From Victivallis vadensis (lineage in GTDB: Bacteria; Verrucomicrobiota; Lentisphaeria; Victivallales; GWF2-50-93): a DNA stretch of 34,933 nucleotides. The translations under genes and the position numbers were made by a program. Shown one piece after another: positions 4,567-34,786 of this stretch (its first letter is position 1; each line of letters begins with the position of its first letter). Below the pieces are notes generated by a model, which did no database searches, was not told the origin of the DNA, and was given only the letters and a program-made list of their open reading frames with translations. The stretch covers positions 1 to 34,933 of the forward strand of contig DYRX01000005.1 in the NCBI GenBank assembly GCA_020718525.1, written 5' to 3'.

Positions 4567-4659
4567 AAGCCTTTGCATAATTCTTGTAAAGCAGGTCTTT
4601 CATAATTCCAAACTCGATGTATCTTAACAGCAATTGAACAACATATCGGAGAAATGGTC

Positions 4660-4998
4660 ATGAACATATCGGTTGACAAAAAAGGAACGGTTACGCTGAT
4701 CACGCTGACAGGAAAAATTGACTCGTCCAACTCGAAGGATTTGAAGACGAAGTTTTCCCAGCTCCGCGCCTCGCCCGACAATTACGTCATGGACTTCAAA
4801 GATGTGGAATTCATTGACAGTTCGGGTCTGGGCGCATTTGTCGCATGCCTGAAGAGCGCGCTCGAGACAGGCGGCAACATCAAGATCGCGAATCTTCAGA
4901 AAAAGGTTCGCATGGTCTTCGAAATAACGAGAATTCACAAGATTTGCGACATATTCGACAGCGTGGATGCGGCACTGGCCTCATACTCGCGGGCCTGA
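4660..4998 (+). CDS. STAS-domain anti-sigma-factor antagonist (SpoIIAA/RsbV/SypA-like)
   Basis: LTGKID and VEFIDSSGLGAFV with phosphoacceptor Ser at codon 4819-4821; VRMVFEITR. GGAG at 4648 favours ATG 4660 over 4654. Confidence 0.93.
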   Translation: MNISVDKKGTVTLITLTGKIDSSNSKDLKTKFSQLRASPDNYVMDFKDVEFIDSSGLGAFVACLKSALETGGNIKIANLQKKVRMVFEITRIHKICDIFDSVDAALASYSRA

Positions 4999-5031
4999 GC
5001 CGGGGAACTGCACAGCTAGCGGAGCTCCGTC

Positions 5032-6456
5032 ATGAAATGTGTAATCTCGCTCAATTTTTCCGGCTCCTCGTGGGCGACTTCTGTTTTTCCAGGCGCTTCT
5101 GCGCAGACTCTTAAAATAGCTAATAAAGCCTGGTGCGAGTATCTCCTCGACTTTTGCTTTGTCTCCTCCATAAAGGATGTCCGAATTCTCGTTGACGATG
5201 CCGGAGACAAGGTGGAGGATTATTTTTCCGACGGAATGAAGTGGGGACTCTCCATCTCCTACGGATTTTCCCGCGAGGGGGACGGCACGGACGAGATCAT
5301 CCTGAAAAACAGGGATTTCGTATCTGGCAATCAGCTTCTGCTGATCTCTGGTCCAGTCTTCATCAATTATTCTGCAAAGGCTCCAAAGAGCGTTTTTTTC
5401 CAAAAAACCGGACGGGAACTCCGTTCAAAGGACGGACTTGGTCGTCTCCTTCTTCTTGACATTTCATCGGACGGCAAAGTCCTTGAGCCGCCAAGTCTCT
5501 TTTCCCAGGAGGAAGCCGCCTTGGAAATTATGACAATATCCAGCGTCAAGGACTACTACGACGCCAACATGATGGTCATAAGGGAGAAAAGGGCGAACTT
5601 TGTGCTTCCCGGATACAGCAATGAAGACGGAGTCTATCTTGGGCAGAATGTTTCGACAAACAGGACAGCCCGTCTGGAAAAGCCCCTGATGCTGGGGGAC
5701 AATGTCGAGCTTGGCGCACTCTGCGTTTTGGGACCATCCGCGATAATCGGCTCGAATGTGATCATTGACGACAGCTCGGTGATTGAGAACTCCATCGTCT
5801 GCGACGGGACCTATGTGGGACGGGATTTGGACATATCCGGAAAAATCGTATCGCAGTCCAGTCTGATAGATCCTGAATCCGGTGAAAAATTCGTACTTGC
5901 AGACAAATTCATACTTTCCGGAGAGGCGATTTCAGAGTTCATGCTGAAGCTGAAAAAACTGCGTTCCTTCATAGCGGCGCTAGTCCTTGTCGTCGCCATC
6001 TGCCCTTTCTATCTGATATTTATCATATTTTCCAAAATTTTCGGCATTCTGGCGCCCGTCGAGAAGACTTACATCGCCTCTGATAGGAAAAGCAGGGCTA
6101 AAACTACGTTTTTCAAAGATCCTGACTCCTTTGCATCGAGACTCTTCTTCAGGCTTTCCTTGGACAAGTTCCCTCTTCTCCTCGAAGTGCTGAAGGGCAA
6201 TATTTTTGTCGCGGGCAACAGCCTTGCAGACTCGGACGAAGCAGGCGAGAAGTCTCTTGAAAATCTTCCGATCTACCTGCCGGGGGTTTTCACATACGCA
6301 GAGACTGTCTCCGAGTTTGGAGCCATCCCGCCGGAAGAAAGGATGATTCACGACATGTATTACAGCCACAGGCCGTCCTTGCTTCTGGATCTTAAAATTG
6401 TCCTGACAGTATTTTTCTCCAGATTATTCGGTCGCTTTTATCCTCATTCAGCGTGA
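5032..6456 (+). CDS. Fusion of degenerate NDP-sugar pyrophosphorylase domain, left-handed beta-helix, TM helix and degenerate sugar transferase (PGT) domain
   Basis: LKIANKAWCEYLLD and YFSDGMKWGLSISY match the NTP-transferase fold but GGxGTRL is absent; hexapeptide repeats (LGDNVELGALCVLGPSAIIGSNVII); C-terminal LDKFPLLLEVLKG and DMYY....SLLLDLKIVLTV resemble Bac_transf. Confidence 0.75.
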   Translation: MKCVISLNFSGSSWATSVFPGASAQTLKIANKAWCEYLLDFCFVSSIKDVRILVDDAGDKVEDYFSDGMKWGLSISYGFSREGDGTDEIILKNRDFVSGNQLLLISGPVFINYSAKAPKSVFFQKTGRELRSKDGLGRLLLLDISSDGKVLEPPSLFSQEEAALEIMTISSVKDYYDANMMVIREKRANFVLPGYSNEDGVYLGQNVSTNRTARLEKPLMLGDNVELGALCVLGPSAIIGSNVIIDDSSVIENSIVCDGTYVGRDLDISGKIVSQSSLIDPESGEKFVLADKFILSGEAISEFMLKLKKLRSFIAALVLVVAICPFYLIFIIFSKIFGILAPVEKTYIASDRKSRAKTTFFKDPDSFASRLFFRLSLDKFPLLLEVLKGNIFVAGNSLADSDEAGEKSLENLPIYLPGVFTYAETVSEFGAIPPEERMIHDMYYSHRPSLLLDLKIVLTVFFSRLFGRFYPHSA

Positions 6457-6462
6457 AAATTT

Positions 6463-6524
6463 GCATATTGACGGGCAAGATTTGGGATTGGATTTTTTTG
6501 TTCCGCCTGAGGGCTGATATGAAT
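6463..6524 (+). repeat. 62-bp direct repeat, copy 1 (copy 2 at 34778-34839)
   Basis: GCATATTGACGGGCAAGATTTGGGATTGGATTTTTTTGTTCCGCCTGAGGGCTGATATGAAT; first 40 nt identical to copy 2, 4 mismatches in total. Confidence 0.95.
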
Positions 6525-6699
6525 GGTGGCGCGATTTTGGAGCGTTTTATTCGTGGGGGGGAGTAGGAGGACGCAGAGCCGCCATATTGGCTGGCGTTTA
6601 GCGAGCTTTTTCTTTGCCGCATGTCTTTGCGCAAACTTGAAGGGACAATTCGCGATTGCTCGAATCTTCAACCCAAGCATAAAAAGGTCAACACAGATC

Positions 6700-7839
6700 A
6701 TGAGCGGATCAAAATACACTGTTTACGGCGGCTCAGAGATTGACACGCTGATTGAATCGCACATGAACAAGCTCGTTTCCGCCGTCTTGAAGGGCGGATC
6801 GGGAACGCTTTCGGCGATCGTTCTTGGGGGAGGCTACGGCAGAGGAGAGGGCGGAGTCAAAAAGATTGGCGGCAAGGATTTCCTCTTCAACGACTACGAT
6901 CTTTTTCTCATATCGAAGAATTTGAGCAGAAAAGAGAAGGCGAAGCAAAATGCGGCATTCAAGAAGGTCGCGCACAATCTTTCCTCCGAGTTCGGCATAG
7001 AGGTTGACTTCAGCCCCCTTAAAAATGAGTCGGAGCTGAGCTCGCTCGACTATGAAATGGTCTGGCTCGAAGCCAAACTCGGCCACGTCGTCCTTTGGGG
7101 CAATCAGAATGTCTTTGACAGAATTCCCAATTGGGATCTGAAAGATATGCCCCTGGAGGAGGCGGCGAGGCTTCTGATGAACAGGGGAATGGGAATCCTG
7201 CTTTCAAAAGGAAGGCTCGGACACGGGGACGAAGATGCGGAAAGCATGGAGTTTGTCGAGAGAAATGCCTGGAAGGCAATCATGGCGGCAGGCGACACCC
7301 ATCTAATCCTCAACCGCGCCTACGACTCATCATACAGAAAGCGCCTTGAAAACTTCAAGGAGCTTCCATCCGGCAAAGATTGTCTCGCACCCGACTTTGG
7401 CGCCTTCTATGCGAAATCCATCGGCTACAAGCTTCTTCCACCGGAAAATCCACCATCGAAACAGGATGCGTCAAGTCTTCTCGCAAAGGCAACAGAGTTT
7501 CTTCTCGCCTCTCAGATTGCCGTCGCATCGAGAATGGCGGGCAGAAAAATGGAACTCAAAGACCTGGCAGACTGCCCCCCCAACATATGCGCCTCGAAAG
7601 GTTTCAAGGGAATAGCAAAGAACATTGTCCTCAACGCGATGAAGTTCGGACCATTCCAGACGCCGTCCTCATTCCTGAAGCACCCGAGAGGAAGAATTTT
7701 TGCGGCGATTCCGTTTTTCTCCGGAGCAGTAGAATTCGATCCTCTAAAGCTTTCGCGTCTGCTCGGACTTCGCGGAACTGAAACGGACAGGACAGTCCTT
7801 TTCAACGCACTCGTCAAGCTTTGGGAGAGGTTTAGTTGA
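6700..7839 (+). CDS. Pol-beta-superfamily nucleotidyltransferase-domain protein of unknown function
   Basis: SAIVLGGGYGRGEGG...NDYDLF, third acidic residue in EVDF, helical C-terminal domain (WKAIMAAGD..L....YDSSYRKR). Start at ATG 6700 (AAAAGG upstream), not the track's 6523. Confidence 0.7.
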   Translation: MSGSKYTVYGGSEIDTLIESHMNKLVSAVLKGGSGTLSAIVLGGGYGRGEGGVKKIGGKDFLFNDYDLFLISKNLSRKEKAKQNAAFKKVAHNLSSEFGIEVDFSPLKNESELSSLDYEMVWLEAKLGHVVLWGNQNVFDRIPNWDLKDMPLEEAARLLMNRGMGILLSKGRLGHGDEDAESMEFVERNAWKAIMAAGDTHLILNRAYDSSYRKRLENFKELPSGKDCLAPDFGAFYAKSIGYKLLPPENPPSKQDASSLLAKATEFLLASQIAVASRMAGRKMELKDLADCPPNICASKGFKGIAKNIVLNAMKFGPFQTPSSFLKHPRGRIFAAIPFFSGAVEFDPLKLSRLLGLRGTETDRTVLFNALVKLWERFS

Positions 7840-9842
7840 TGGCAGAATCTCAGAAAAACAAAGCCGCGCCAATTACAGAAACGCCATTCGACTTCATAAA
7901 GATTTCGCCGAATGTCCTGCGCGTGACTTTGATGAAAAACATTGTCTGGATCATCCTCGCAGGCATACTTGGTGCGGGAATTGGCGCGGTTGCAAGCAAG
8001 CTGATGATAAAAAACAAATGGACAAGCAGATGCTCCCTGTACAAACTGCCACAGTCCGCCGAACTGCGCAAGGAAATACCTTCCCTCTACGAGCCGCCGG
8101 ATCTGAACACCGTAGTAGAGTCAATAAGGACGAGGGAAAACATACAAAAGGCCATCAAGCGCCTGGGAATGGACATATCGGTTGACGCATTCTACGGAAA
8201 GACCAAGATCCAGAAGCAGAAAAACAACAATCTCTTCACTATCGTGGCAGAGGACGAGGACAGGGAAAAATCCGCCCAGATAGCAAATGTCATGGCTGAA
8301 ATATTCCTTGAATCCTATGCGTCAATGATGCAGGGGTCTGCTAGAAAGCTCGAGGAGCAGTACATCAGCTCCGCCGGAACCATAAGGGCGGAAATGACCG
8401 ACCTCGAGAAGAAAATGCGCAAAATGCTATCTGACAAGGGTATAAACTCGATTGAAACCGAACTCGGAATGAACATACAAAAGGTCAAGGACATCGGAAT
8501 GAAGCTCCTGGAAAGCAGGGCGGCCGCCGAGACAGCCAGGATAAGGCTTCAGGATTTGGACATCGCAATTGCCAAAATGTCCCCTGATGTCCAGATTTCA
8601 TATGTTGTGACTCCGCCTGACGCAGGCCTTCTCAAACAGCTCGAGGCACAGCTCAACGAGCTCACACAGAAATTCACCGACGAAAATCCTAAAGTCAAAA
8701 GACTCCGCTCCGAAATCGAAGAGCTGAAAAAAAGAACCGTCAACCCGGGAAAGCCAAGCCCCGAGCAAGTCACATACGGAAGCAATCAGACCAGACAGAC
8801 TCTCGAAATAGAAAAGCTCAAGGTCGAGTCGGAGCTGAAGTCCTCCATGAAGAACATTGAAAGCTTCGAGCGCGAAGTGAAGGACATCAGAAAAAGCATT
8901 GACGGGATTTCATCCATGAACGAGGAATATTCGGAGCTTTCCAGGAAGCTTGATCTCAACAGGCAGACTTTGAGCAAGGTGGAGACAATGATCGCGGCAT
9001 CCGGACTCTCAGTCAAGCCTAACAGCCTGGACATCAAGATCTTCGAGCCGGCAGTTCCGCCCGCCTACCCAGACAGTTCGAAGCGGAAGCTCATAGTCAT
9101 CGCCGTCGGCGGGCTTTTCATGGGCTTGGTGGGTGCGCTGGCACTCGGCAGGGAAGTTCTGGATCTGACAGTCAAATCCGACTCCGATATGAGCGAAATT
9201 CTGCACGTCAAGAACCTGGGTGCCCTTCCCGACAGAGACGCAGTCAACATCTCGCTTTTCAACGTCTCCTTCCAGGTCGTCTTTGAAAACATGATGAACG
9301 AGCTGAAGAATGTCCAGCGCCCTGTAATTGTCGTCGGATCCGTCTCGAAGGAAGCCGGGAAGTCCCTCCTGATAAACGAGTGCATGAGGATCTTCAGGGC
9401 GAGAAACAAGACTGCCCTGATAATTTCAGACCCGAAAAACGCAGGCGCAGTTGAGAAGAACAGCATGGTCAACCACTTCGTCTATTCGAGACTTCCATTC
9501 GACGATTTCCACCCGACACTGCGGGGAGACGGAAGCCCGGGCGCGTTTTTCGAGCTGGACGAGACGACATTCTCCTACCCTATAGACGAAGAGCGCCTCG
9601 CCGCCTTCATCAAGGAGCAGAAGAGCTATGACATGATCATTTGGGAGCTCTTCGACTTCGACAGGAACAAAAGGCTTTTCTCTACGATAGCGAGACAGTC
9701 AGATCTCTTTGTTCTAGTTACGCGCTTCAGGAAAAGCAAAAAATTGGACTGCATAGCCTGCACAAAATTCTTGAAACTGCAGAACTGCCGGGACATTTCC
9801 GGAATCGTGAATTGCATCCACAGCGATTATTTCAACATTTGA
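7839..9842 (+). CDS. Wzc/GumC-like polysaccharide co-polymerase with degenerate C-terminal BY-kinase-like domain
   Basis: Two TM segments flanking a long coiled coil with FTDENPKVKRLRSEI; IFEPAVPP before TM2; LGALP; P-loop remnant GSVSKEAGKS; TGATG coupling to the upstream gene. Confidence 0.85.
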   Translation: MAESQKNKAAPITETPFDFIKISPNVLRVTLMKNIVWIILAGILGAGIGAVASKLMIKNKWTSRCSLYKLPQSAELRKEIPSLYEPPDLNTVVESIRTRENIQKAIKRLGMDISVDAFYGKTKIQKQKNNNLFTIVAEDEDREKSAQIANVMAEIFLESYASMMQGSARKLEEQYISSAGTIRAEMTDLEKKMRKMLSDKGINSIETELGMNIQKVKDIGMKLLESRAAAETARIRLQDLDIAIAKMSPDVQISYVVTPPDAGLLKQLEAQLNELTQKFTDENPKVKRLRSEIEELKKRTVNPGKPSPEQVTYGSNQTRQTLEIEKLKVESELKSSMKNIESFEREVKDIRKSIDGISSMNEEYSELSRKLDLNRQTLSKVETMIAASGLSVKPNSLDIKIFEPAVPPAYPDSSKRKLIVIAVGGLFMGLVGALALGREVLDLTVKSDSDMSEILHVKNLGALPDRDAVNISLFNVSFQVVFENMMNELKNVQRPVIVVGSVSKEAGKSLLINECMRIFRARNKTALIISDPKNAGAVEKNSMVNHFVYSRLPFDDFHPTLRGDGSPGAFFELDETTFSYPIDEERLAAFIKEQKSYDMIIWELFDFDRNKRLFSTIARQSDLFVLVTRFRKSKKLDCIACTKFLKLQNCRDISGIVNCIHSDYFNI

Positions 9843-9852
9843 CGAGGAGACT

Positions 9853-10980
9853 ATGAGCAAATCTGTTAAAAATTCTATTTTTATCTGCACTGTCTTTTTT
9901 TTCATCATTTTCCAGAACGGATGTAACGTTCCGGAGGGAGCAATAGACGCGTCCACTCTGCCTACGGAGGCTGAAGAAATCGCTGGTGGAACGCAAAACA
10001 ATGAGAAAATTAAAAAAGAGCTCGAGGAGCTACAGAAGCTCAAGACCGATGTCTACCGCTTCGCCCCGGGCGACAAATTCGATTTCAGGGTTTACGACAA
10101 CGAGGACATGACCTTCAACGGAGTGATTGTCACGCCGGATGGAAATGTCTCGATTCCCCTTGCCGGAGTTGTCCAGGTCGGCGGGCTTTCAATTGCCGAG
10201 GCACAGGCCGCCGTCGAGGAAAAACTGCGCAAATTTATACGCGACCCGCACGTATCGCTCATCCCGACTGAGATTTCTTCTTCAACATTTACAATCGTTG
10301 GAAAAGTCGGAAATCCAAACCGCTTCGCGATCACGCGGACAACACGGCTGACAGACGCGGTAGCGATGGCGAAAGGCTTTCTCACCGGACAGTACGACGG
10401 AAAAACCATAGAAATAGCAGATCTTGACAACGCCTTCATCGCAAGAAACGGAAAAGTCCTTCCAGTAAACTTCATAGAAGCCATAGAAAGAGGCAACCCT
10501 CTGCACAACATCCCCCTTGCCGACGGCGACTACATCTACATCCCGTCCTCCGTGAACGCGGAAATATTCATACTCGGCGAGGTTGTAGCCCCGACCCACA
10601 TTGGCTACCAGAACGGCATGACCGTCACAAGGGCGCTGACATATGCCAGAGGACTCCTCGAGGCTTCTTCCTCGACCATTCTTGTGATAAGAGGAAATCT
10701 TGCGACACCAAAGGTTTACGCGATTGACATACACGACGTGATGCGCGGGATGCAGAGAGACTTTGTCCTCAAGCCCAACGACATCATTTTTGCGCCCCGC
10801 GGAGCATTCTCCCAATACAACGTCGTAGTGGAAAAGCTCATGCCAACATTTGAACTTCTAAATCTGATTGCCGGACCTTTTGGAAACAACGCAATGACTC
10901 TCGCCCTTCCATCGTCTAGCGGAGACAGCGGAGGCGGTGGCGGCGGAAGCAGTGGTAACAGCAGTGGGAGCGGGAACTGA
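9853..10980 (+). CDS. wza: Wza/OPX polysaccharide export lipoprotein with SLBB domains
   Basis: Signal peptide ending QNGC; YRFAPGD, VTPDGNVSIPLAGVVQVGGLS, FIRDPHVS; SLBB repeats LADGDYIYIP and LKPNDIIFAP. Confidence 0.9.
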   Translation: MSKSVKNSIFICTVFFFIIFQNGCNVPEGAIDASTLPTEAEEIAGGTQNNEKIKKELEELQKLKTDVYRFAPGDKFDFRVYDNEDMTFNGVIVTPDGNVSIPLAGVVQVGGLSIAEAQAAVEEKLRKFIRDPHVSLIPTEISSSTFTIVGKVGNPNRFAITRTTRLTDAVAMAKGFLTGQYDGKTIEIADLDNAFIARNGKVLPVNFIEAIERGNPLHNIPLADGDYIYIPSSVNAEIFILGEVVAPTHIGYQNGMTVTRALTYARGLLEASSSTILVIRGNLATPKVYAIDIHDVMRGMQRDFVLKPNDIIFAPRGAFSQYNVVVEKLMPTFELLNLIAGPFGNNAMTLALPSSSGDSGGGGGGSSGNSSGSGN

Positions 10981-10998
10981 CAAGAGGAAAGCGGAGAG

Positions 10999-12390
10999 AT
11001 GGAGCTTAAATACATAGTTTTCGCAGTGTGCCTGCTTGGGATAGTCCCCTTCGCGTACGCTGTGGCTCTGCGCAACAAGATTGCAGAGAACATCGTCCTC
11101 TTCATCGCCATATTCTTCACATGCAGTCTCCTCGGAAAAATCAATTTTGTATCCATGGAGACATACCGGGGGACAGCGAAGGGATTTGAAATAACTCTCG
11201 TTGACATTGCCGCGCTCATTCTTTTTCTCCTGGTCCTCACCAGATCAAAAGAGCGAGCCCTGATTCTTATTCCGCCCTGCTCCATCCTATATCTGATTTA
11301 TTTCATCATCAGCTGGATTTCTGTAGTAAACGCCGAGCAGACAGTATACTCCTATTTTGAGCTCTGGAAGATGGCAAAGATGTATTTCTACTACTGGGTC
11401 ATGTCAAACTATCTGTGCTCGGAAGAAAATATAATGAAAGTCGTCAATATGATTCCGATTATAATAATTTATATCTTTCTGGTTGTGCTCGACCAGAAAT
11501 ACAGGATGCACCTTTTCCAGACAAACGGTCCACTGCCTCACCAGAATTCCCTCGTGATGTATATGATGATATTCGGCACAATCATGTTCGCCCTCCTTCT
11601 GAACGGAGACATTTCAAAATACAAGATCATGTTCCTGCTTCTGATAATGGCGATGGCTGCGGTCTGCATCGTCAGCACGCTTTCCAGAGCTGGTCTCATG
11701 TGCTTTGCGCTTTCCTGCACTATTGTCATGGGATTCTCGATGCTGAACGGACTTGATTCCAGAAAGATAGGTGTCACAATCCTGATAGTACTGGGGGCGC
11801 TTGGCATTCTTGCCAAGAGCATCAATACAATCATCGAAAGGTTCCAGACCGCTCCAGAACAGTCAGCTCAGACGCGTATAGATCTGGCTATCGCCGCCAA
11901 GAAAATGGCTGACGACAAAACATTCGGAATCGGTCTCAACAACTGGGGCATCAAGATAAATCCTCCCTATCCGTACAGCGATCACATAGAAAGAAAGGAC
12001 GATGAATTCAAGGAGGGCATTGTCGAGACGGTATATCTCCTTGTGGCGGCCGAGACTGGCTGGGCAAATCTGGTCGTCTTTCTTTTCTACATCGGAAAAT
12101 TCTATATTCTAAATCTGATAAACTATTTCAGGTTCAAGAAAAAGTCGCTGATGTTCATTTCAGCAGGACTTGCAGGCGGTCTTTTCGGCGTCTACTTCGA
12201 ATCAACTCTCGAATGGGTGCTCAAGCAGATGAACAACTATTATCAGCTCATGCTGGTATATGCAATGATATCTGCCATGACGGAACTTCACAGACGTGGA
12301 AAACTGGAACAGAGCGACGAGCAAGATGCAGAAACGCAGGAAGATGAAATCCCGCCTGCCCAAGCTGCGGAAGCATACAGCGGAGTTTGA
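10999..12390 (+). CDS. O-antigen ligase-like / Wzy polymerase membrane protein
   Basis: About 12 TM helices; GPLPHQNSL, TLSRAG, large loop with S..TR and FGIGLNNW, AAETGW. Confidence 0.85.
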   Translation: MELKYIVFAVCLLGIVPFAYAVALRNKIAENIVLFIAIFFTCSLLGKINFVSMETYRGTAKGFEITLVDIAALILFLLVLTRSKERALILIPPCSILYLIYFIISWISVVNAEQTVYSYFELWKMAKMYFYYWVMSNYLCSEENIMKVVNMIPIIIIYIFLVVLDQKYRMHLFQTNGPLPHQNSLVMYMMIFGTIMFALLLNGDISKYKIMFLLLIMAMAAVCIVSTLSRAGLMCFALSCTIVMGFSMLNGLDSRKIGVTILIVLGALGILAKSINTIIERFQTAPEQSAQTRIDLAIAAKKMADDKTFGIGLNNWGIKINPPYPYSDHIERKDDEFKEGIVETVYLLVAAETGWANLVVFLFYIGKFYILNLINYFRFKKKSLMFISAGLAGGLFGVYFESTLEWVLKQMNNYYQLMLVYAMISAMTELHRRGKLEQSDEQDAETQEDEIPPAQAAEAYSGV

Positions 12391-12392
12391 AC

Positions 12393-12569
12393 ATGAACAG
12401 ACTTGTCGGAAAAATATGCAGGATATCCGCATTTGCGACAGGCATAGGCCTCCTTCTCGCCGCATTCTTTCTGACTCTCTACAAAATCAAATGCGCGATG
12501 GGGCTGGACTTTTTCCCGGAAATCCATCTCCGGAACATCATAGAAGAGATTCTGCCGCATGGAAACTGA
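12393..12569 (+). CDS. Small single-pass membrane protein (58 aa)
   Basis: GGAG RBS 7 nt before ATG 12393; fills the gap between the wzy-like and wzx genes; TM helix followed by YKIKCAMGLDFFPEIHL. Confidence 0.62.
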   Translation: MNRLVGKICRISAFATGIGLLLAAFFLTLYKIKCAMGLDFFPEIHLRNIIEEILPHGN

Positions 12570-12596
12570 AAATAAATCTTTGAACAGGAACAACTT

Positions 12597-14168
12597 ATGA
12601 GTCTTGCATCAAAAGAGGTTCTTCGGGGTACCATCAGCAACTACATACTGCTACTATCAAGAATCATATGCTCCATCTTCATGGCTAGGATACTTGTCGT
12701 CGGTCTCGGCGAAACCCTCTACGGCTTCTGGGGCTTCCTGTGGGCTGTCTTCGGATATTCCGTGCTTCTGGATTTCGGCTTCGGACAGACGATACAGAAA
12801 TTCACAGCGGAATCTGACGTTAAGAACGACATGAAATCCTTCAACAGCCTGGTCTCAACCGTGATGCTCGTCCTCTGCGCATTTTCCGTCGTCATTGCCG
12901 CGTCTTCCCTCTGCATCGCATATTTTCTGGATCATCTCGTCGCCGCCCAGCCCGGCGAAGGCGCCCTGGACATGAACTATCTGAAGATCTCTTTCGCCGC
13001 GTTCGGAGTCGGTGTCTCAATTGTCTTTCCAACGGGCATCTTTCCTGAAATTCTGGCGGGAATCCGCAGATTCGACATCAAAAATGCCATACTTGTGGTC
13101 AATGTCCTTGCGAATCTCGCAGGATTCTATCTGCTGATAAAATTCGGATATTCCCTGCTTTCCATAGCGCTTTTCACGGCGGGTCTCAATCTTGCGACGA
13201 ACATCGTGATGATCGTGATCATATCAAGGCTTCTTCCGGGCTTCCGGATATCCCCGTTCCTTGCGAATTTCGCGAAACTGAGAGAGATTTCATCCTTCAG
13301 CGCATATTCCTATGTCTGCACGATCTCCGACATGTTCATAACAAGGACAGACAGGCTCATCATCGGATATTTTCTTGGTATGTCCTCTCTCGGAGTATAT
13401 CAGATCGGAACAAGGCTTCCTGAAATGATGGAGAAGCTCACGACGCAGTTTCAGACCACGCTCGGTCCGATAGCCGCTTCACTCTACAAGTCGGGTGATT
13501 TCGAAAAATTGAGATGGGTCCTTCTGAGAAGCACAAAGATCTCCGCCTTCGTCGCCGGATATTTCCTCGTCGTGTTTTATCTTCTCTCACCGCAAATCCT
13601 TAAAATCTGGCTGAAGATCGAAGATCCCGAAGCCGTGAAAGTCACTTCCATATGCATCGCTTCAGTTTTCATCTCTGTGCTCTTCAGAAGCGTTCAGAGC
13701 AGGTTCATGCTGATGGCTGGCGAGCACAAGCATATTGCCCAGATACAGACAGCCTACGCAATACTGACACTTGTCCTGATGATCACGTCGGTGAAGTTTT
13801 TCGGCCTGCTTGGACTGCTCTACGGAGCTCTTGCGGCAAATGTCATCATAAGCGTATTCATAGAATTCCCCCTCGCCGCACGCCTCGGTAAAATGAGCGT
13901 CGGATATTATCTACGAAAAGTATATTTTCCTCTGCTGATTCCCATAGCACTCTGCGCGGGAGCGGTTTTCGCATTTCTTCAGATTCCAGGCCCGTGGAAC
14001 TTGCTGAGACTCGGAATCGCCTCGGTCAGCGCTGGAATTGTCTATCTCGCATCTGGATGGTTTATTTTTTTCAGCAGGGATGAAAAGTTGAAACTGCTTG
14101 ATATGTCGAAGCTTGCACCAGTCGTAAGGAAACTGAAGATCGGCGGATATCTTGGTCTTGGCGTTTGA
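12597..14168 (+). CDS. wzx: Wzx-type oligosaccharide flippase (MOP superfamily)
   Basis: About 14 TM helices; LG...YGFW, LLDFGFG, TDRLIIGYFLG...LGVYQIG.RL. Confidence 0.88.
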   Translation: MSLASKEVLRGTISNYILLLSRIICSIFMARILVVGLGETLYGFWGFLWAVFGYSVLLDFGFGQTIQKFTAESDVKNDMKSFNSLVSTVMLVLCAFSVVIAASSLCIAYFLDHLVAAQPGEGALDMNYLKISFAAFGVGVSIVFPTGIFPEILAGIRRFDIKNAILVVNVLANLAGFYLLIKFGYSLLSIALFTAGLNLATNIVMIVIISRLLPGFRISPFLANFAKLREISSFSAYSYVCTISDMFITRTDRLIIGYFLGMSSLGVYQIGTRLPEMMEKLTTQFQTTLGPIAASLYKSGDFEKLRWVLLRSTKISAFVAGYFLVVFYLLSPQILKIWLKIEDPEAVKVTSICIASVFISVLFRSVQSRFMLMAGEHKHIAQIQTAYAILTLVLMITSVKFFGLLGLLYGALAANVIISVFIEFPLAARLGKMSVGYYLRKVYFPLLIPIALCAGAVFAFLQIPGPWNLLRLGIASVSAGIVYLASGWFIFFSRDEKLKLLDMSKLAPVVRKLKIGGYLGLGV

Positions 14169-14197
14169 AACAACACGTAATTCGGGGAGAATGGAAA

Positions 14198-15403
14198 ATG
14201 AAAGACCGCAAAGGTGGAAGGCTCAAGCTGGCGATAGTCACGAACCGCTTCTATCCGGAGGTCGGCGGCGCGGAGACAAACATATGGTTCCAGGCGAAGG
14301 AGCTGGCAAAAATCCACGATCTGACTGTCTTCTGCCCGAAAAGAATTGACGCCCCCTGGAAAGAAAGCATGGACGGATTCACGCTCATCAGGCTCTACGA
14401 CATTTTGAATCCGCTTTGCAGGACGCCCAATATCGCGACAAAAACACTTTCGCCCTCAATTCTCGCTAAAATCTTCTTTTCCCGCTTCGATGTCGTCATG
14501 TTTTTTCCTGCGCTCAACTACAACAACAAGCTGGCCTATTTGGCGGCTAAGCTTTCCGGCACCCCGATCATCGGCTGTTTCTTCGACTTCATTGACTATG
14601 CTGGACTGATCAAGAAAAACGGATCTGTCCCCGACGACATTCTTGAGAGGACTCATGTCAAAAGCCTCGACGCCAGGATACTTCGCGGACTCGATCATGT
14701 ATATGCGATCGCAGACAAGGAAATCGCGTTTCTTAAAAAATTCAATCCGAATGTCGAATATTCGCCAGTGCCTGTCCTGCTCGACGAATACTTGAAGGAA
14801 ACTCCGTCCTGCCGCGCAAAGTATGGCGTCTCGGAAAGCGACTTCGTATTTCTCTGCCTCGGAAGAGTCTCACAAATCAAGGGGCAGGATCTCGCGGTAA
14901 ACGCCTTCTGCTCCGCGTTCAAAGACAAACCCGACGCGAAACTCGTCGTTGTGGGAAGGCACGACTACGAGCCGTCCTTCACCGACGCGATGAAGAAAGA
15001 ATGCGCCGAAGCCGCTGTCCAGGATCGTGTGAAATTCACCGGAATGCTTGACAGGAGCGAAGTCCTGTCCTGGCTCCGCCATTCGGATGCGCACGTGATT
15101 CCTGTCCGCTTCATGAACTCCGGGGCGGTTGTTGTCGAAACCTGGGCGTCGGGAACCGCGGTCATTCAGAGCGACGTCGTGGATCCGAACCTTGTCGTGG
15201 ACGGCGAAAACGGATTCCTCTTCAAGAAAGGTGATGCAAAAGCTCTCGCGAATAAAATGCTTGAGGCATACTCTAAAAAATCAGAGCTTCCAAAAATGGC
15301 GGAAAAAGGCGCCGCCCTTGTAAAGGAGAAGTATACATACGAATATCTTATTGGCCTCTATCAGAAATCCTTCGACAGGCTACTCGCAGGAAAAACGCAT
15401 TGA
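14198..15403 (+). CDS. Glycosyltransferase family 4
   Basis: FYPEVGGAE, LGRVSQIKGQD, VKFTG, VVETWASG, VVDGENGFL; start at ATG 14198 behind GGGGAGA. Confidence 0.88.
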   Translation: MKDRKGGRLKLAIVTNRFYPEVGGAETNIWFQAKELAKIHDLTVFCPKRIDAPWKESMDGFTLIRLYDILNPLCRTPNIATKTLSPSILAKIFFSRFDVVMFFPALNYNNKLAYLAAKLSGTPIIGCFFDFIDYAGLIKKNGSVPDDILERTHVKSLDARILRGLDHVYAIADKEIAFLKKFNPNVEYSPVPVLLDEYLKETPSCRAKYGVSESDFVFLCLGRVSQIKGQDLAVNAFCSAFKDKPDAKLVVVGRHDYEPSFTDAMKKECAEAAVQDRVKFTGMLDRSEVLSWLRHSDAHVIPVRFMNSGAVVVETWASGTAVIQSDVVDPNLVVDGENGFLFKKGDAKALANKMLEAYSKKSELPKMAEKGAALVKEKYTYEYLIGLYQKSFDRLLAGKTH

Positions 15404-15413
15404 TGGAGAATAA

Positions 15414-16433
15414 ATGAACGCGATAAAAAATCTTTCCCTTCGGACTGCGCTTGCGTTTACGCTCTGCGCCTTGCTGGGCGCCTGCTCGGATTCCGGCAAG
15501 GAGCAGAAGAGCGTCCAAAGCGACGTCGTGGTCATTGCCAACAAGCTGAACGGAGAGCTGAAAGAGATCAGAAAAGAGGCGGAACTCCTGGCAAAAACCT
15601 TCGAAGGATTCTATAAAAATCAAGACGAGCTTGCGTCGAAGGCAGTCAAGTCATCCTATGCGATGGCACCTAATGGCACATATTACAAGACAGTGAACGA
15701 CGGAGAGTCGGCTCTCTGGATTTCCGGCTACACGCCGATTACTGACGAAGTCATCAAAATCGCGCATTTGACCGAGGCCGGGGACAGCCATTTCAAGGAT
15801 TTGATCTCCAGACGCCCCGCCGCAATTCAGGTCTATTACAACGACAGAAACTGCATCAACAGGATCTATCCCTGGTTCGACGTGCTTTCCCAATATCAGC
15901 CTAAGATGAAGATCCCCGAGTTCAATTTCTACTATCTTGCAGATGAGAAGCACAATCCTGAGCGAGCCGGTGTCTGGATAATGGAGCCCTACATTGATCC
16001 GGCAGGAAGAGGCTGGATCGTTTCCGCCATTGCTCCGGTCTATCATGAAAAGCGCCTTGAGGGCGTCTGCGGAATAGACATCACAGTGCAGACCCTGGCA
16101 TCGAAGTATCTTTCACAGCTTGGCGCGGTATTCGCAATTTTCACGGACTCCGGCACTCTTGTCTCGGCTGACGAAAAGGCGATGGCGATCATGCGGATGC
16201 CTCCGCTCAACTCCCCAAAATACATGGAGGCGGTGAACAAGGATCTCTACCTGATGGAAACATACAACATTAGCAAATCGAGAAGCAAGGAAACAAGAAA
16301 ACTCGGGACAGACCTGATTGAGAAGAAGCTTTCTGAAACGTTTTTCGCTTCAGGAAATGATGAATACAAGGTCAGCTCGGCGAAAATATTGGAGCTTGGA
16401 TGGCTCCTTGTCTCGTTTGAACAGCAAAAATAG
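15414..16433 (+). CDS. Standalone dCache-domain sensory lipoprotein
   Basis: Lipobox LGAC; Cache motifs VW.MEPYIDPAGRGWIVSAIAPV, LEGVCGIDIT, C-terminal LGWLLV; no second TM or output domain. Confidence 0.8.
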   Translation: MNAIKNLSLRTALAFTLCALLGACSDSGKEQKSVQSDVVVIANKLNGELKEIRKEAELLAKTFEGFYKNQDELASKAVKSSYAMAPNGTYYKTVNDGESALWISGYTPITDEVIKIAHLTEAGDSHFKDLISRRPAAIQVYYNDRNCINRIYPWFDVLSQYQPKMKIPEFNFYYLADEKHNPERAGVWIMEPYIDPAGRGWIVSAIAPVYHEKRLEGVCGIDITVQTLASKYLSQLGAVFAIFTDSGTLVSADEKAMAIMRMPPLNSPKYMEAVNKDLYLMETYNISKSRSKETRKLGTDLIEKKLSETFFASGNDEYKVSSAKILELGWLLVSFEQQK

Positions 16434-16449
16434 GCACGGCAAAAAGAAG

Positions 16450-19400
16450 ATGAAGCTTGCGGACATTAAATTGAAGTTCTTATTGAGGGGCACACGGCTG
16501 AATGTCCTGCTCATGATCGTTGTCCTGGCAAGCCTCGCCGCCGCCTGCCTCTTTTTCATGAGAACGACATTCGAAAGAGAGATCGCCTCCGCCCAGGAAA
16601 AGACATTTCTGCTTGTCTCCACCCTTCGCAACGACGTCGAATCGGAATATGCGAGATTCGCAGACGAAATGCGCTACAAAATCTCCTACGCCCCCCTTTC
16701 CGCCCTCCTCGCAGACGAAGCTCCGGCCTATGACAAGATTCTTCCTCTGCGCAAGCTCTATTCCCTGGATCAGGACATCATATCAAAAATCTGGGTGCTC
16801 TCGCCGGACGGAAAAGGCCGCGCTATCACATGCGAAAAGAACAACTACTTCAATCTCTCTGAAATAGCCGAATATGCCCCATCGCCCTTCGTCAGCGACG
16901 GAAAAATGACGGAAGCCCTCGAATTTCCATGCTATGCGGTCGGCGGAGATCTCGCATACCGAGTCATAGTCGAACTCGATTACGGCAAGCTGGTCGGCAA
17001 GGAGATGAGCATGCTTTCCTCCATCAATCCCGATGCCTGGTTCTTCTACATGAAGCCTGCGGGCAGACCGGTCGAGGTCAGAAAATCCGGCAGTTCAAAC
17101 GCCTCCATAGCGATTGACTCCACTGCGAGAGTCAGAATATTTTCAGAAGTGTCCGCAGGCTACGACGGGAGCACCGAAAACAAGGCGTTCACAGGCGGAC
17201 GCGAGATTGATCTTGTATCATCCTATTCCCCACTCGGCAAAAATGCTGAAAAAGGCTGGATAATGGTCTCCCTTGACAAACAAAAGGTTCTCTCCTCAAT
17301 CGTAAGCGCAATCTTCAACGTCTCAATCATCTTCATTGCACTGCTTTCAATCATCGTCGCGGTCTCCTCATACTTCATATTCAGAATCAGGTCTTCCGGG
17401 AAAGCCCTCTGGGAAAGTCAGAGGAAATGGAGCTTCGCGATCGAAGGCAGTGGAGAAGGCGTCTGGGAATGGGATGCCGCCACAAGGAAGATCCATCTCT
17501 CGGGGCGCTCCAGAGAAATCCTATCCGCCGCCTCCGACGAGATAGAAGAATGGACATTGAACGCCCATCATGACGATGAAAAGAGAGTGAAGGACGCGAT
17601 ATCAACATGCATGTCTGGCGACGAGGGGCTCTACAACTGCGAATACAGGTTCAAGTGTTCGGACGGATCCTTCAAATGGATACTCGACAGAGGCATGATT
17701 CTTGAAAGAGACCAAGGCACGCCACTCAGGATGATCGGGACCGTCGCTGACATCAGCTCGAGAAAAAAATCTGAAGAAGAAATCCGGCGACTCTCTGAAA
17801 GGCTCGATCTTGCGATACGCGCCGCAGGCATTGGCGTATGGGACTGGGACATGGAAAAAAATCGTCTCATTTGGGATGACTGGACCCGCAAGCTCTACGG
17901 CATTGAGTCCGAAGATTTCCCAACGAAAATCGAGGACTGGTTTGAGATGATTGATCCTGCGGACAGAAAGCGCGTCAAGGCCGACATCGAATCGTCCAAG
18001 ACAAGGCGTCTGTATTTCAGCGACGAATTCAGGATAGTCGCCAGGGACGGAACGAAGAAATTCGTGAGATCCGAGGCGAAAGTCTTCCTGAACGAAATCG
18101 GAATTCCCTCAAGAATAGTCGGAGTGAGCTACGACATCACAAAAAGCAAGACGACCGAGAACGAGCTCGTTCACAATTCCGAGACTGCCAGCCTGATCGC
18201 AAGGATGTCCACCCACTTTATAAATATTGACTCCCCATCCATAAACAACGCCATAACTCTTTCACTGGGCTCGCTTTGCGCTCATCTCCGCATTGATGTC
18301 GTGAGAATTTTCAGATTTTCCGAGGACGACTCCAGCTTCACATGCACCAACGAATGGAACTCAATGGGGGCTTCGCACTCGATTCCGCGCAAAACCCTTC
18401 AGGCAAAAAATGAAAGCCATTGGATGCGGACGCTCAGAGAGTATAAAAACATTTTCGTCAAGGACTTCATGAAATCCGCTCCGCCAGACGCGAAAGACTG
18501 GAGCTTTCTTGAAGGAGTCCCCGCAAAATCGGCCCTTCTTCTCCCGCTTGCGTGGAGAAACAGGCTCGAGGGCTTCATCTGCTTCATGACAGTCTCTCAC
18601 GAATGGTCGCCGGGCGACGCCGAGCTCTCCCTTCTCCAGACGCTCGAAGATATTTTTCTAAGCTCCTTCAAGAGGGAGGAAATAGAAGTCGCACTCATAA
18701 AAAACCAGGAAAAGCTCAGGGAAAGCAACACAGAACTCAATTCCTGGAAGAGCAGAATTTCAAACGAACTGTCCCTCGCAGGCGCTCTCCAGAAAAAAAT
18801 CTTCAGACCAGATCCGAGAATCTCTGACGAGTCATGCTTCATGTGGGCGCACAAGCCTGCCATGGATGTTGGAGGCGACATCTTCGGAATTGAAAGTCTC
18901 AAGAACGGCCGCGTCTGCCTCTTCGTCGGGGATGTTTCCGGACACGGAGTAGGTTCCGCCCTCGTCTCGTTCATGATGAAGGCGATAGTCAAAGAGGCTA
19001 TTGACGACTATTCCGATCTGGGTCCGGCGAAAATCTGCAACGAGATCAACCGCCGCTACCTTGACTCGGTATCAAGCGACTTCTATGTCACATTTTTCAT
19101 AGGAATATTCAATCCTGCAGACTTTTCCTGGAACTGCATGAACTGCGGCCACCCCGAGCCGCTGATATTTACAGACTCCGGCAAATTTCTTGACTTTGAT
19201 CTTTCCAGCTCCGGCGGCGGACTCCCGATCGGAATGGGATTTTTCGGAAAAAACCAGTATTCGGAGACGGACGAATTCCGTTTCCTCACGCCACCCGGAT
19301 ATTCACTGCTACTATACACAGACGGAATAGTCGAATCCGAAAACACGGCAAGCGGGGAAATGTGCGACATTGAAACGCTGAAGGAAGTCGCCGGAAACGT

Positions 19401-19944
19401 CCTTTCCTCCAAGATGCTCGGAGATCCGGCGTCTGAAATCGTAGCCCAAGTATCGGCGAGGGGGTTTAACTTCGACCGCGACGACATGACAGTCATGTCC
19501 GCCGTCTTTCACGATCCGGCATCAATCTCGATGAAAAAGGAGATTAAGCCCAGCCTGGACGCGATTCAGTCTTTCAGCGACGAACTCGATACATATCTTT
19601 CCTCGATCGGCTGGAAAGAGGAGTCGGCATATGCGGCACACCTCCTCTGCGCGGAACACCTCAGCAACGTCGTCAAGCACGGCTTGATCAGCTCAGGAGC
19701 GCCCATATTGTTCATGATGAGAATCTGCGACTCGGGTACCGCCATTCTTTTCTCAGACCACGGCTGTGAATGGAATTGCGAAGCAAGGAAAGAATCGGAG
19801 GAGCCAAGGCTCGCCGAAGGCGGCTATGGTCTCGGAATCATAAGAAAATTGTCCGATGTCTCCGTCTTCTACAGAAAAGATGGAATCAACCACGCATATT
19901 TTGTGATTTCAAAAGATGCGTGCCCAAGCTTTGACGGCGAATAG
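16450..19944 (+). CDS. Membrane sensor: periplasmic domain, PAS-PAS, GAF, PP2C/SpoIIE phosphatase and RsbW-type HATPase Ser kinase
   Basis: Two TMs; PAS (GVWEWD, HHDD, EYRF...DGSFKWI.DRG; GVWDWD, IDPAD); GAF; PP2C VGGD, GDVSGHG, NCGH, YTDG, DDMT; HATPase EHLSNVVKHG, SDHG, GGYGLGII. Start at ATG 16450, after the upstream stop. Confidence 0.9.
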   Translation: MKLADIKLKFLLRGTRLNVLLMIVVLASLAAACLFFMRTTFEREIASAQEKTFLLVSTLRNDVESEYARFADEMRYKISYAPLSALLADEAPAYDKILPLRKLYSLDQDIISKIWVLSPDGKGRAITCEKNNYFNLSEIAEYAPSPFVSDGKMTEALEFPCYAVGGDLAYRVIVELDYGKLVGKEMSMLSSINPDAWFFYMKPAGRPVEVRKSGSSNASIAIDSTARVRIFSEVSAGYDGSTENKAFTGGREIDLVSSYSPLGKNAEKGWIMVSLDKQKVLSSIVSAIFNVSIIFIALLSIIVAVSSYFIFRIRSSGKALWESQRKWSFAIEGSGEGVWEWDAATRKIHLSGRSREILSAASDEIEEWTLNAHHDDEKRVKDAISTCMSGDEGLYNCEYRFKCSDGSFKWILDRGMILERDQGTPLRMIGTVADISSRKKSEEEIRRLSERLDLAIRAAGIGVWDWDMEKNRLIWDDWTRKLYGIESEDFPTKIEDWFEMIDPADRKRVKADIESSKTRRLYFSDEFRIVARDGTKKFVRSEAKVFLNEIGIPSRIVGVSYDITKSKTTENELVHNSETASLIARMSTHFINIDSPSINNAITLSLGSLCAHLRIDVVRIFRFSEDDSSFTCTNEWNSMGASHSIPRKTLQAKNESHWMRTLREYKNIFVKDFMKSAPPDAKDWSFLEGVPAKSALLLPLAWRNRLEGFICFMTVSHEWSPGDAELSLLQTLEDIFLSSFKREEIEVALIKNQEKLRESNTELNSWKSRISNELSLAGALQKKIFRPDPRISDESCFMWAHKPAMDVGGDIFGIESLKNGRVCLFVGDVSGHGVGSALVSFMMKAIVKEAIDDYSDLGPAKICNEINRRYLDSVSSDFYVTFFIGIFNPADFSWNCMNCGHPEPLIFTDSGKFLDFDLSSSGGGLPIGMGFFGKNQYSETDEFRFLTPPGYSLLLYTDGIVESENTASGEMCDIETLKEVAGNVLSSKMLGDPASEIVAQVSARGFNFDRDDMTVMSAVFHDPASISMKKEIKPSLDAIQSFSDELDTYLSSIGWKEESAYAAHLLCAEHLSNVVKHGLISSGAPILFMMRICDSGTAILFSDHGCEWNCEARKESEEPRLAEGGYGLGIIRKLSDVSVFYRKDGINHAYFVISKDACPSFDGE

Positions 19945-22863: not shown

Positions 22864-22878
22864 TATGGAGATGCTCAC

Positions 22879-34077: not shown

Positions 34078-34786
34078 GAGACGGAACAGAGAGGAGATGA
34101 TTGACAAGTTCATCTCCGCCCGCCGCAAGGACAAACTGCTCCCTTCGGGACTTAAGATGGTGGCGTGGAAGTCAACTGTCGCATTATCATACTTTCTCAA
34201 GCGCGCAATTGACATCCTCGTATCATCCACGGCGCTTTTCATCGCTTCGCCATTCTTCACCCTTCTTGCCATCGCGATCAAAATCGAATCGCCAGGTCCT
34301 CTCATCTTTTCTCAGATCAGAGTCGGGAAAAACGGACGGCACTTTAAATTTTTCAAATTCAGATCCATGGTTCAGAACGCGGAAAAACTAAAGGACCAGC
34401 TCAAGCAGGACAACGAGTCAAAGGACGGCGTGATATTCAAGATGAAGAAAGATCCGAGAATCACGAAGATTGGCGCTTTCATACGAAAATTCAGCATAGA
34501 CGAACTGCCACAGCTTTTCAATGTTCTGATCGGAGACATGAGCCTGGTAGGTCCCCGCCCTCCCCTGCCCCGCGAAGTCGCGGAATACACGCTGGAAGAC
34601 CGCAAGCGCCTTCATGCCAAGCCTGGCATCACATGCACTTGGCAGATATCTGGACGAAGCGACATCCCATTTAAGATTCAGGCCGAGCTGGACAAGGAAT
34701 ACATACACAGCAAGAGCTTCTGGAAGGACATGAAAATTCTTATTCTTACCGTTCCGGCAGTCATCACCGGAAAAGGCGCATATTGA
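34064..34786 (+). CDS. Priming (initiating) monotopic phosphoglycosyltransferase / bacterial sugar transferase
   Basis: KRAID, Q.RVG.NG..F...KFRSM, DPRIT.IG.FIRK.SIDELPQL.NVL.GDMSLVGPRP, KPGIT..WQ..GRS; GGAGG RBS before ATG 34064. Confidence 0.95.
   Translation: MEINERRNREEMIDKFISARRKDKLLPSGLKMVAWKSTVALSYFLKRAIDILVSSTALFIASPFFTLLAIAIKIESPGPLIFSQIRVGKNGRHFKFFKFRSMVQNAEKLKDQLKQDNESKDGVIFKMKKDPRITKIGAFIRKFSIDELPQLFNVLIGDMSLVGPRPPLPREVAEYTLEDRKRLHAKPGITCTWQISGRSDIPFKIQAELDKEYIHSKSFWKDMKILILTVPAVITGKGAY

Follow-up and report, generated by a model that had tools for sequence, protein, structure and literature searches.

In the 34,933-nucleotide stretch of Victivallis vadensis DNA analysed here (assembly GCA_020718525.1, contig DYRX01000005.1, positions 1 to 34,933; hereafter the window), a gene on the plus strand at 16450-19944 encodes a 1164-residue sensor protein that carries both a PP2C (SpoIIE-family) phosphatase domain and an RsbW-type serine kinase domain. 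It lies within a polysaccharide locus that has a gene for a STAS protein at its head. As far as sequence can tell, comparison with split orthologues shows the sensor protein to be the product of a histidine kinase gene and a response regulator gene that were joined within a shared linker motif, minus the HisKA, HATPase_c and REC domains, and its relay-less state is derived from a His-Asp relay. We put at roughly 0.65 the probability that this exopolysaccharide locus is under a post-transcriptional STAS phospho-switch, with writer and eraser residing in one inner-membrane protein that was formed by excision of the relay. The parts of the sensor gene, together with the STAS gene, are as follows.

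4654-4998, plus strand: STAS-only protein (SypA/HsbA-like), 114 amino acids (Pfam STAS, NCBIfam)
16450-19944, plus strand: sensor protein, 1164 amino acids
16498-17388, plus strand: first transmembrane segment (residues 17-38), periplasmic dCache-like domain (39-284) and second transmembrane segment (285-313), from hydropathy
17428-18159, plus strand: two PAS domains, residues 327-435 and ~456-570 (Pfam PAS 1.8e-4; PAS_3 2.1e-28 in two stretches)
18217-18684, plus strand: GAF domain, residues 590-745 (predicted fold)
18685-18819, plus strand: helical linker with the fusion junction, residues 746-790
18820-19509, plus strand: PP2C (SpoIIE-family) phosphatase domain (Pfam SpoIIE 7.5e-32, residues 819-1018)
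19555-19941, plus strand: RsbW-type serine kinase (HATPase_c_2) domain (Pfam 1.5e-7, residues 1036-1140)

The sensor gene was searched for across 40 relatives and found in only two, G002 and G014 (same family, other genera), each time as two matches in two frames. A scan of genome contigs likewise gave two loci only, those of the same two genomes. Both loci are syntenic with the window, with a STAS gene at the head, the same assembly genes, a Cache lipoprotein, a sensor kinase and a REC regulator. The sensor histidine kinases (1061 or 1086 amino acids) each have two PAS_3 matches and a HATPase_c match (8e-25 and 2e-23). HisKA scored in the G002 kinase only, at 23 bits and under the 26.9-bit cut-off, and the same His-box stretch is present in both kinases at a place where the window protein does not have it. 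The adjoining or overlapping gene encodes a REC-SpoIIE-HATPase_c_2 regulator of 589 or 566 amino acids. Residues 9-775 of the window protein share 50-51% identity with the two kinases, and residues ~750-1156 share 46-58% identity with the two regulators.

In a joint alignment, the window protein is kinase-like up to about residue 763 and regulator-like from about residue 754. The crossover zone at residues 754-763 (nucleotides 18709-18738) contains a motif, E-x-L-R-E-x-N-x-x-L, that is common to both parents. Of the parental segments that meet there, one is the helix leading to the kinase His box and the other the helix that connects REC with PP2C in the regulator. Compared with the G002 genes, the window protein lacks about 293 kinase residues and 175 regulator residues, some 1.4 kb, and the frame is kept. 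The window protein has no Response_reg match at E ≤ 1 (Pfam), and neither HisKA nor REC was found in the 31 window open reading frames (ORFs) scanned. The first-pass annotation of this DNA had proposed a circuit that needs no His-Asp relay, which these results bear out, and they add that the relay-less form is a derived one. It had also presented the separation of the STAS gene from its enzymes as special, and this part falls away, as the relay-bearing relatives have the same distant layout.

A single close full-length relative of the fused protein is present in libraries of 5.8e9 and 1.84e9 proteins. This is P0005, a metagenomic protein of 1166 amino acids from another record, which shares 53% identity, the same architecture and the same junction with the window protein, and aligns without a gap over 89 residues across the junction. 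Split forms occur in one of these libraries, P0124 as the regulator (57%) and P0153 as the kinase (54% over the GAF part). Among the top 14 metagenomic loci with relatives of the output module, 12 were examined (L017 and L024 were omitted as near-duplicates of L016 and L023). REC is present in all 12, in some together with Hpt, a second REC or PAS. In a 17-row maximum-likelihood tree of the PP2C-kinase module, the window protein groups with P0005 (support 90/88); the G002-type regulators are the sister group of this pair, and G014 branches below them. A five-row clade (96/99) contains this pair and otherwise REC-bearing members, and is itself nested among REC-bearing regulators. The simplest reading is one relay loss in the common ancestor of the window protein and P0005; the reverse would require HisKA, HATPase_c, a gene boundary and REC to have been inserted at the same point at least twice.

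No further fused form was found among the genomes searched, namely a phylum sample of 400 genomes and the 40 relatives. The phylum sample held 49 further genomes with the output module, and all matches outside the own genome start at or after residue 130 of the 580-residue query; there is thus no GAF domain of this kind joined to the output module in those 49. In the assembled reads, the junction is crossed at depth 10 by a separately assembled contig of 4892 bases from run X1, possibly the source sample. In X3 and X4, contigs cover the two flanks of the junction but miss 18569-18820, and X5 gave nothing.

Both catalytic domains keep their characteristic residues. The PP2C motifs GGD (D810), GDVSGHG (D828), YTDG (D958) and DD (D1011 and D1012) are invariant in a 5-sequence alignment and align with the same motifs of Rv1364c; in the SpoIIE/RsbU branch of the PPM/PP2C phosphatases, the four acidic positions of the GGD, DxxGHG, TDG and DD motifs bind metal. 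In the kinase domain, the boxes E1069-x3-N1073-x3-H1077, D1103-x-G1105-x-E-W and G1125-x-G1127-L are kept in the 3-, 5- and 17-sequence alignments, and HATPase_c_2 scores 31.9 bits against a cut-off of 27.4 (Pfam). A single-sequence search with the kinase domain alone gave no solved relative. A 12-sequence profile searched against the PDB gave RsbW (6m36_A, 2.4e-4) as the best match, followed by SpoIIAB, with the N, G1 and G2 boxes aligned. The G1 box reads D-x-G-x-x-W in the window kinase, and since RsbW itself has D-x-G-x-x-F there, the label RsbW-type is apt. In Foldseek, the model of the PP2C-kinase output matched the fused RsbU/RsbW domains of Rv1364c best (3ke6, 3e-20, 382 columns, 18% identity), and RssB, SiaA, SpoIIE and RsbX were also matched; SiaA-PP2C (6k4e) is a structural match to the PP2C domain of the sensor. 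The predicted local distance difference test score (pLDDT) of the kinase model is about 90 except in the lid, where it is low (model residues 528-540). Intact PP2C metal motifs and intact N/G1/G2 boxes had been claimed from the sequence at the outset, and both claims stand. From these conserved sites we infer both enzyme activities for the sensor.

The sensor most likely starts at ATG 16450 and runs to the stop codon at 19944. The open frame reaches back to TTG 16318, and in the database the gene is called (P0004, 1175 amino acids) from a TTG 33 nucleotides upstream of ATG 16450. On the input side, the first-pass annotation had named periplasmic, PAS-PAS and GAF inputs, which hold to different degrees. 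The PAS pair is recovered by Pfam, with PAS_3 matching in two stretches of which the best is 474-559. The GAF region has no Pfam match even at E ≤ 1, and none was found by hhalign against the GAF-bearing P0021 or by a PDB profile search. In an AF2 model, residues 585-794 fold with a mean pLDDT of 84.9 (an earlier model from a shallow alignment had stayed below 50), and all listed Foldseek matches are GAF domains or GAF-bearing sensor proteins, for example 5zoh (1.1e-8) and 3ci6. Protein-language-model features agree with GAF (0.97), and in five of nine distant full-span relatives HMMER aligns the region, as a single stretch, with the part that Pfam assigns to GAF. A GAF domain is thus shown only by predicted fold. 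The periplasmic part, about 245 residues between hydrophobic segments, has no Pfam match; its language-model features (ESM Atlas) are nearest to dCache_1 clusters (0.96), which is a lead only. The linker helix is continuous over residues 723-785 in the GAF model and 742-784 in a longer model. The broader claim, that a multi-domain membrane input shares one polypeptide with a PP2C and an RsbW-type kinase, both apparently intact, is supported.

The STAS ORF at 4654-4998 matches Pfam STAS (5.4e-19) and the NCBIfam anti-sigma factor antagonist family (1e-21), and its probable start is the second ATG, at 4660, where the homologues begin. Its DSSGLG stretch aligns, across the phosphoserine motif, with DSSGLG of SpoIIAA (1auz) and DSTGLG of RsbV (6m36_B), and the serine of the DSSG phosphosite is Ser57, numbered from 4654. 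The protein shares 70% and 69% identity with the locus-head STAS proteins of G002 and G014, and the phosphosite is invariant in both orthologues. The retention of the DSSG phosphosite, another of the early claims, is confirmed by these alignments. So is the reported distance of about 11.5 kb between the STAS and sensor genes: from the STAS stop to the sensor start we measured 11.45 kb on the same strand, with polysaccharide genes in between.

From gene conservation we infer that, of the candidate substrates of the sensor, the STAS protein encoded first in the locus is the best. The genes for STAS and for the sensor or regulator are co-conserved in the same locus in the own genome (G000), G002 and G014. 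The own genome has no close paralogue of the STAS protein, the next best sharing 27% identity, and the window sensor ORF is its only frame with both SpoIIE and HATPase_c_2. The related regulators of the nine loci L014-L022 (L016 being a near-duplicate of L017) are in eight cases followed, within ~1 kb downstream, by a gene of the window STAS family (E 1e-16 to 1e-24 when compared with the window STAS); the ninth contig, L018, breaks off 535 bp past its regulator. In all four loci examined for it, a gene for a full-length priming phosphoglycosyl transferase (PGT) separates regulator and STAS, and in L037 the STAS gene is followed by a gene for a nucleotidyltransferase/beta-helix protein like that at 5032-6456 of the window. 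Other partner-switch sets are found in the own genome: on C132 a STAS gene and an RsbW-like gene adjoin each other and a PP2C gene lies 9 kb away, C545 has separate PP2C and RsbW-like genes, and the STAS and PP2C genes of C578 are ~1.3 kb apart.

The source genome bin comprises 4.35 Mb in 592 contigs and is 91% complete. From about 3484 to its end, the window is a Wzx/Wzy-type polysaccharide locus (Pfam, NCBIfam) with nearly all genes on the plus strand. Besides the STAS and sensor genes, it contains the following.

3484-4566: ManC-like nucleotidyltransferase
5032-6456, plus strand: nucleotidyltransferase-like, left-handed beta-helix, transmembrane and PGT-like protein, 474 amino acids (Pfam LbH_EIF2B, Hexapep, partial Bac_transf)
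6523-7839, plus strand: unknown protein, 438 amino acids
7836-9842, plus strand: Wzz-like chain-length determinant (Pfam/NCBIfam)
9853-10980, plus strand: Poly_export/SLBB protein (Pfam/NCBIfam)
10999-12390, plus strand: Wzy_C polymerase (Pfam/NCBIfam)
12597-14168, plus strand: flippase (Pfam/NCBIfam)
14165-15403, plus strand: GT4 protein (Pfam/NCBIfam)
15414-16433, plus strand: lipoprotein-like periplasmic Cache-type protein (weak dCache_1, MCP-like_PDC_1)
19995-21617 and 21589-22863: two unknown proteins, 540 and 424 amino acids
after 22863: GT2, GtrA-PMT_2, phosphoesterases, GT2, two GT4 and WecG, in that order
34019-34786, plus strand: full-length priming PGT of the locus (Pfam Bac_transf 4.1e-66, profile 1-178 of 179)

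The assembly genes at 6523-15403 have the same order in L009 and L010, as judged by ORF sizes. The 474-residue protein encoded next to STAS is conserved in G002 and G014, and its partial Bac_transf match covers profile positions 81-175 of 179 (31.6 bits, Pfam). In the PGT family, the DE motif is catalytic. Compared with the PGT of the locus itself, the 474-residue protein has DK for DE, AGNSL for VGPRP and PGVFTYAE for PGITxxWQ, and its counterpart in G014 has N-K at the DE position. Its PGT-like C-terminal domain is probably non-catalytic, judging from these substitutions, and the protein is a candidate partner of the STAS protein. The unknown protein encoded downstream of it has 438 amino acids in the window and 380 in G002. 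Between these two genes, G002 has an extra gene of the PRK/uridine-kinase family (212 amino acids, L009:16944-17582, minus strand) with no counterpart in the window. A 486-residue protein at 32617-34077 combines a partial Bac_transf match (profile 94-177) with a WecG/TagA glycosyltransferase domain, and its frame overlaps the start of the full-length PGT by 59 nucleotides.

The gene for the Cache-type lipoprotein stops 17 bp before the sensor gene, and a Cache-type lipoprotein gene lies directly upstream of the sensor or sensor-kinase gene in three of three genomes (L009:7270-8283 and L010:7245-8360, both minus strand). The N-terminal stretch of the window lipoprotein ends in L-L-G-A-C. This lipoprotein matches dCache_1 at 31.2 bits, under the 45-bit cut-off, and also MCP-like_PDC_1 (Pfam); a role as co-sensor, or in binding a ligand together with the sensor's periplasmic domain, is possible. 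Downstream of the sensor, the 540- and 424-residue proteins have no match in Pfam or NCBIfam. A 545-residue protein without a Pfam match lies at the corresponding place in G002 (L009:692-2329, minus strand). The region 20001-24000, which covers these two genes and a GT2 gene, has GC skew down to -0.155 and -0.174 and negative AT skew, and the rest of the locus is close to 0.

A mechanism can be proposed by analogy with known systems. Signals from the periplasmic dCache-like domain, perhaps together with the co-encoded Cache lipoprotein, and from the PAS-PAS-GAF region would enter the sensor and run down the continuous helix of ~45-60 residues into the regulatory helices of PP2C. The C-terminal RsbW-type kinase would phosphorylate Ser57 of the STAS protein and PP2C would remove the phosphate, as in SypE/SypA and HsbR/HsbA. 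The unphosphorylated STAS protein would then bind a biosynthetic protein, not a sigma factor, and promote polymer synthesis, as for SypA. In the relay-bearing relatives, the sensor kinase would presumably phosphorylate REC and shift the balance between kinase and phosphatase, as reported for HsbR and SypE. The STAS substrate, the direction of control and the downstream target are all putative. Control of PPM phosphatases by PAS, GAF, REC or HAMP domains through coiled-coil linkers has been proposed, as set out in the relevant passages of PMC12143880, and the GAF-to-PP2C helix of the window protein has that proposed geometry. It is also consistent with the signalling helix that PMC1592074 describes as linking sensor domains to histidine kinases or to PP2C phosphatases. 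More tentatively, and in our view with odds well short of even, the same orthologous sensor could drive DHp in one lineage and the PP2C-serine-kinase pair directly in the other, following a crossover between two linkers resembling signalling helices in which the helical register was preserved, and the STAS protein could gate the start of polymer assembly via the 474-residue neighbour or the priming transferase.

STAS switches that govern polysaccharide or biofilm output, such as SypE/SypA, HsbR/HsbA and SiaABC, usually receive their inputs via phosphorelays, in the accounts drawn on here. The closest parallel in layout is the syp locus of Vibrio fischeri, where, as in the window, a STAS-only protein is the first regulator gene of a polysaccharide locus and a protein with kinase and PP2C is encoded further inside. 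SypE phosphorylates and dephosphorylates SypA at Ser56, and SypA promotes Syp polysaccharide, as described in PMC4517449 and PMC8256260. In the passages that deal with it, the same 2015 and 2021 papers give the SypA target as still unidentified; they describe post-transcriptional control through a target that is not a sigma factor, and the same is proposed for the window. SypE has the order kinase-REC-PP2C and is switched by a phosphorelay (relevant passages of PMC4517449 and PMC3610818), whereas the window protein is sensor-PP2C-kinase without REC and takes its input from its own membrane/PAS/GAF module, a comparison made by description only. HsbR of Pseudomonas aeruginosa and CrsR of Shewanella oneidensis are described in PMC6482189 as REC-PP2C-kinase proteins, and the STAS partners HsbA and CrsA as phosphorylated on serine in the same motif; the genes of the window suggest the same arrangement of PP2C followed by kinase, and the nearest relatives of the window protein have exactly this HsbR/CrsR-type REC-PP2C-HATPase_c_2 architecture. 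Unlike HsbR and CrsR, the window protein is without REC, the His-Asp input (HptB for HsbR, a sensor kinase in G002 and G014) having been excised, and the context is one of polysaccharide genes instead of flagellar or RpoS control. In SiaA/SiaB/SiaC of P. aeruginosa, a membrane-anchored PP2C sensor and a kinase likewise set STAS-like phosphorylation with biofilm as output (parts of PMC7647112 and PMC9239204), but kinase and phosphatase do not share a chain as they do in the window, and a diguanylate cyclase is the output. HenR/All4160 of Anabaena PCC 7120 is a further close system; it differs in that STAS is fused to the glycosyltransferase and that kinase and phosphatase are separate.

Direct coupling of sensory domains to PP2C and an RsbW-like kinase is on record. 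Rv1364c of Mycobacterium tuberculosis (3ke6), the best sequence and structural match among solved structures, shares with the window protein the REC-less order of PAS, PP2C and RsbW-like kinase. It is cytoplasmic and has its own C-terminal STAS domain, as described in PMC12143880, whereas the window has a membrane sensor and a separate STAS gene 11.45 kb off. OsaC of Streptomyces coelicolor, treated in the same source, joins PAS and GAF directly to PP2C and has an RsbW-like domain, and Streptomyces PAS/GAF-PP2C-HATPase_c_2 proteins are among the listed protein matches. OsaC and its actinobacterial kin are soluble and SigB-linked, and by the tree the window module belongs to a different, REC-associated subfamily. 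The contrast that the first-pass annotation drew with SypE, HsbR and SiaA/SiaB was correct as far as it went; it passed over the REC-less Rv1364c and OsaC (PMC12143880, in the passages on these proteins). Of 120 listed proteins, 33 are SpoIIE plus HATPase_c_2 without REC, five of them with dCache_1 and one with HAMP, so the class was already on record. Five of nine distant full-span relatives are also PAS/GAF-PP2C-HATPase_c_2 proteins without REC. P0134 (901 amino acids) couples an extracytoplasmic CHASE domain to a PP2C-HATPase_c_2 module. Its 33% identity is within the subfamily range of the REC forms, it has no REC match at E ≤ 1e-4, and it looks like a second, independent relay-less membrane form in this subfamily. 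For Campylobacterota, a survey of genomes predicted PP2Cs with periplasmic sensors, as well as REC-PP2C-kinase fusions, that act on STAS proteins (part of PMC9239204). In the open-access literature we found no report of a polysaccharide locus in which a membrane sensor shares a chain with PP2C and an RsbW-like kinase, nor any of a partner switch from Lentisphaerota. The architecture class and its logic are already known; new are this input set on this output subfamily, the Lentisphaerota polysaccharide-locus setting and the orthologous split/fused pair that dates and maps the relay loss.

Several findings weigh against the proposed switch, and some of them lend themselves to other explanations. 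The branch that unites the fused forms is moderately supported (90/88) in a small sample, and the GAF and periplasmic assignments come from predicted fold or features, not from sequence-family matches. Only one contig bridges the junction, and the run it belongs to is possibly the source sample, so independent support for the junction comes from P0005 alone. That the fused gene arose by chimeric assembly, or that it is a functionless product of a recent deletion and now in decay, is nevertheless very improbable. Such an origin would suit a bin fragmented into 592 contigs and the gap at 18569-18820 in the contigs of two other samples, but the frame is intact over 1164 codons, the separately assembled 4892-base contig bridges the junction at depth 10, and P0005, which comes from a different record, shares the junction at 53% identity, so that the fusion must be old and maintained. 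The Pfam score of the kinase domain is 31.9 bits against 48.2 and 46.4 in the relay-bearing orthologous regulators, though its box residues are all kept, and this lower score could reflect relaxed constraint. Taken with the low model confidence in the ATP-lid, it would agree with a loss of catalysis in one of the two domains since the fusion, leaving a module for docking or regulation such as a kinase-dead STAS binder, in which case the protein would be only a regulated phosphatase or only a kinase. We regard this as rather unlikely: the window protein and P0005 both retain E1069, N1073, H1077, D1103, G1105, G1125 and G1127 along with every PP2C metal ligand, and this retention at 53% overall identity indicates purifying selection on both sites.

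The choice of substrate and of target is also open to other accounts. Cross-talk or another substrate is possible because the own genome has 10 STAS, 7 SpoIIE and 5 HATPase_c_2 matches. The sensor might act on a different STAS protein elsewhere, with the one at 4654-4998 served by other enzymes or unphosphorylated; the 11.45 kb between the two genes would suit such an arrangement, as would the SypA orthologues that PMC4517449 notes in species without sypE. The same was left open for RbdA and SypA(VP) in vibrios lacking sypE. Against this stand the co-conservation of the two genes in three genomes, the same-family STAS genes beside related regulators in eight of nine loci, a nearest paralogue of only 27% identity and an invariant phosphosite, and we give it little credence. 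The output could instead be a sigma factor, the RsbW-like domain serving mainly as an anti-sigma factor that is released by STAS. HsbR and CrsR have the same PP2C-kinase order and a third, kinase/anti-sigma domain that binds RpoS, as described in PMC6482189, and among solved structures the window kinase domain is closest to RsbW and SpoIIAB, both of them anti-sigma kinases. Canonical partner switching involves a sequestered sigma factor or another defined partner, and the scan of 31 window ORFs gave no match to a sigma-factor family, although a partner may be encoded elsewhere. The module also lies within polysaccharide loci in three genomes, the priming transferase gene is placed between regulator and STAS in four of four related loci, and SypA is a precedent for a target that is not a sigma factor; a sigma-factor output thus seems improbable to us.

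Our preferred reading, a STAS phospho-switch written and erased by the fused sensor, would otherwise be a modest finding, as its components, its logic and the REC-less architecture class are all on record. What the window adds is an example of a two-component pathway collapsed into a one-component one, in the form of a matched natural pair. In one member a sensor kinase works with a REC-PP2C-kinase regulator, in the other the same sensor is wired straight to the PP2C-kinase module, and the junction is defined to within ~10 residues. This pair could serve to test the proposal, made in the relevant part of PMC12143880, that coiled-coil linkers make sensors exchangeable between PPM phosphatases and histidine kinases. 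The finding also adds to the indications that SypA-type STAS proteins act where polymer assembly begins, and if STAS does gate this step, a class of candidates would be named for the long-unknown target of these proteins. If the fused protein is still responsive to signals, the His-Asp relay would be dispensable, and the helical output of the sensor could be read by either class of effector without re-engineering.

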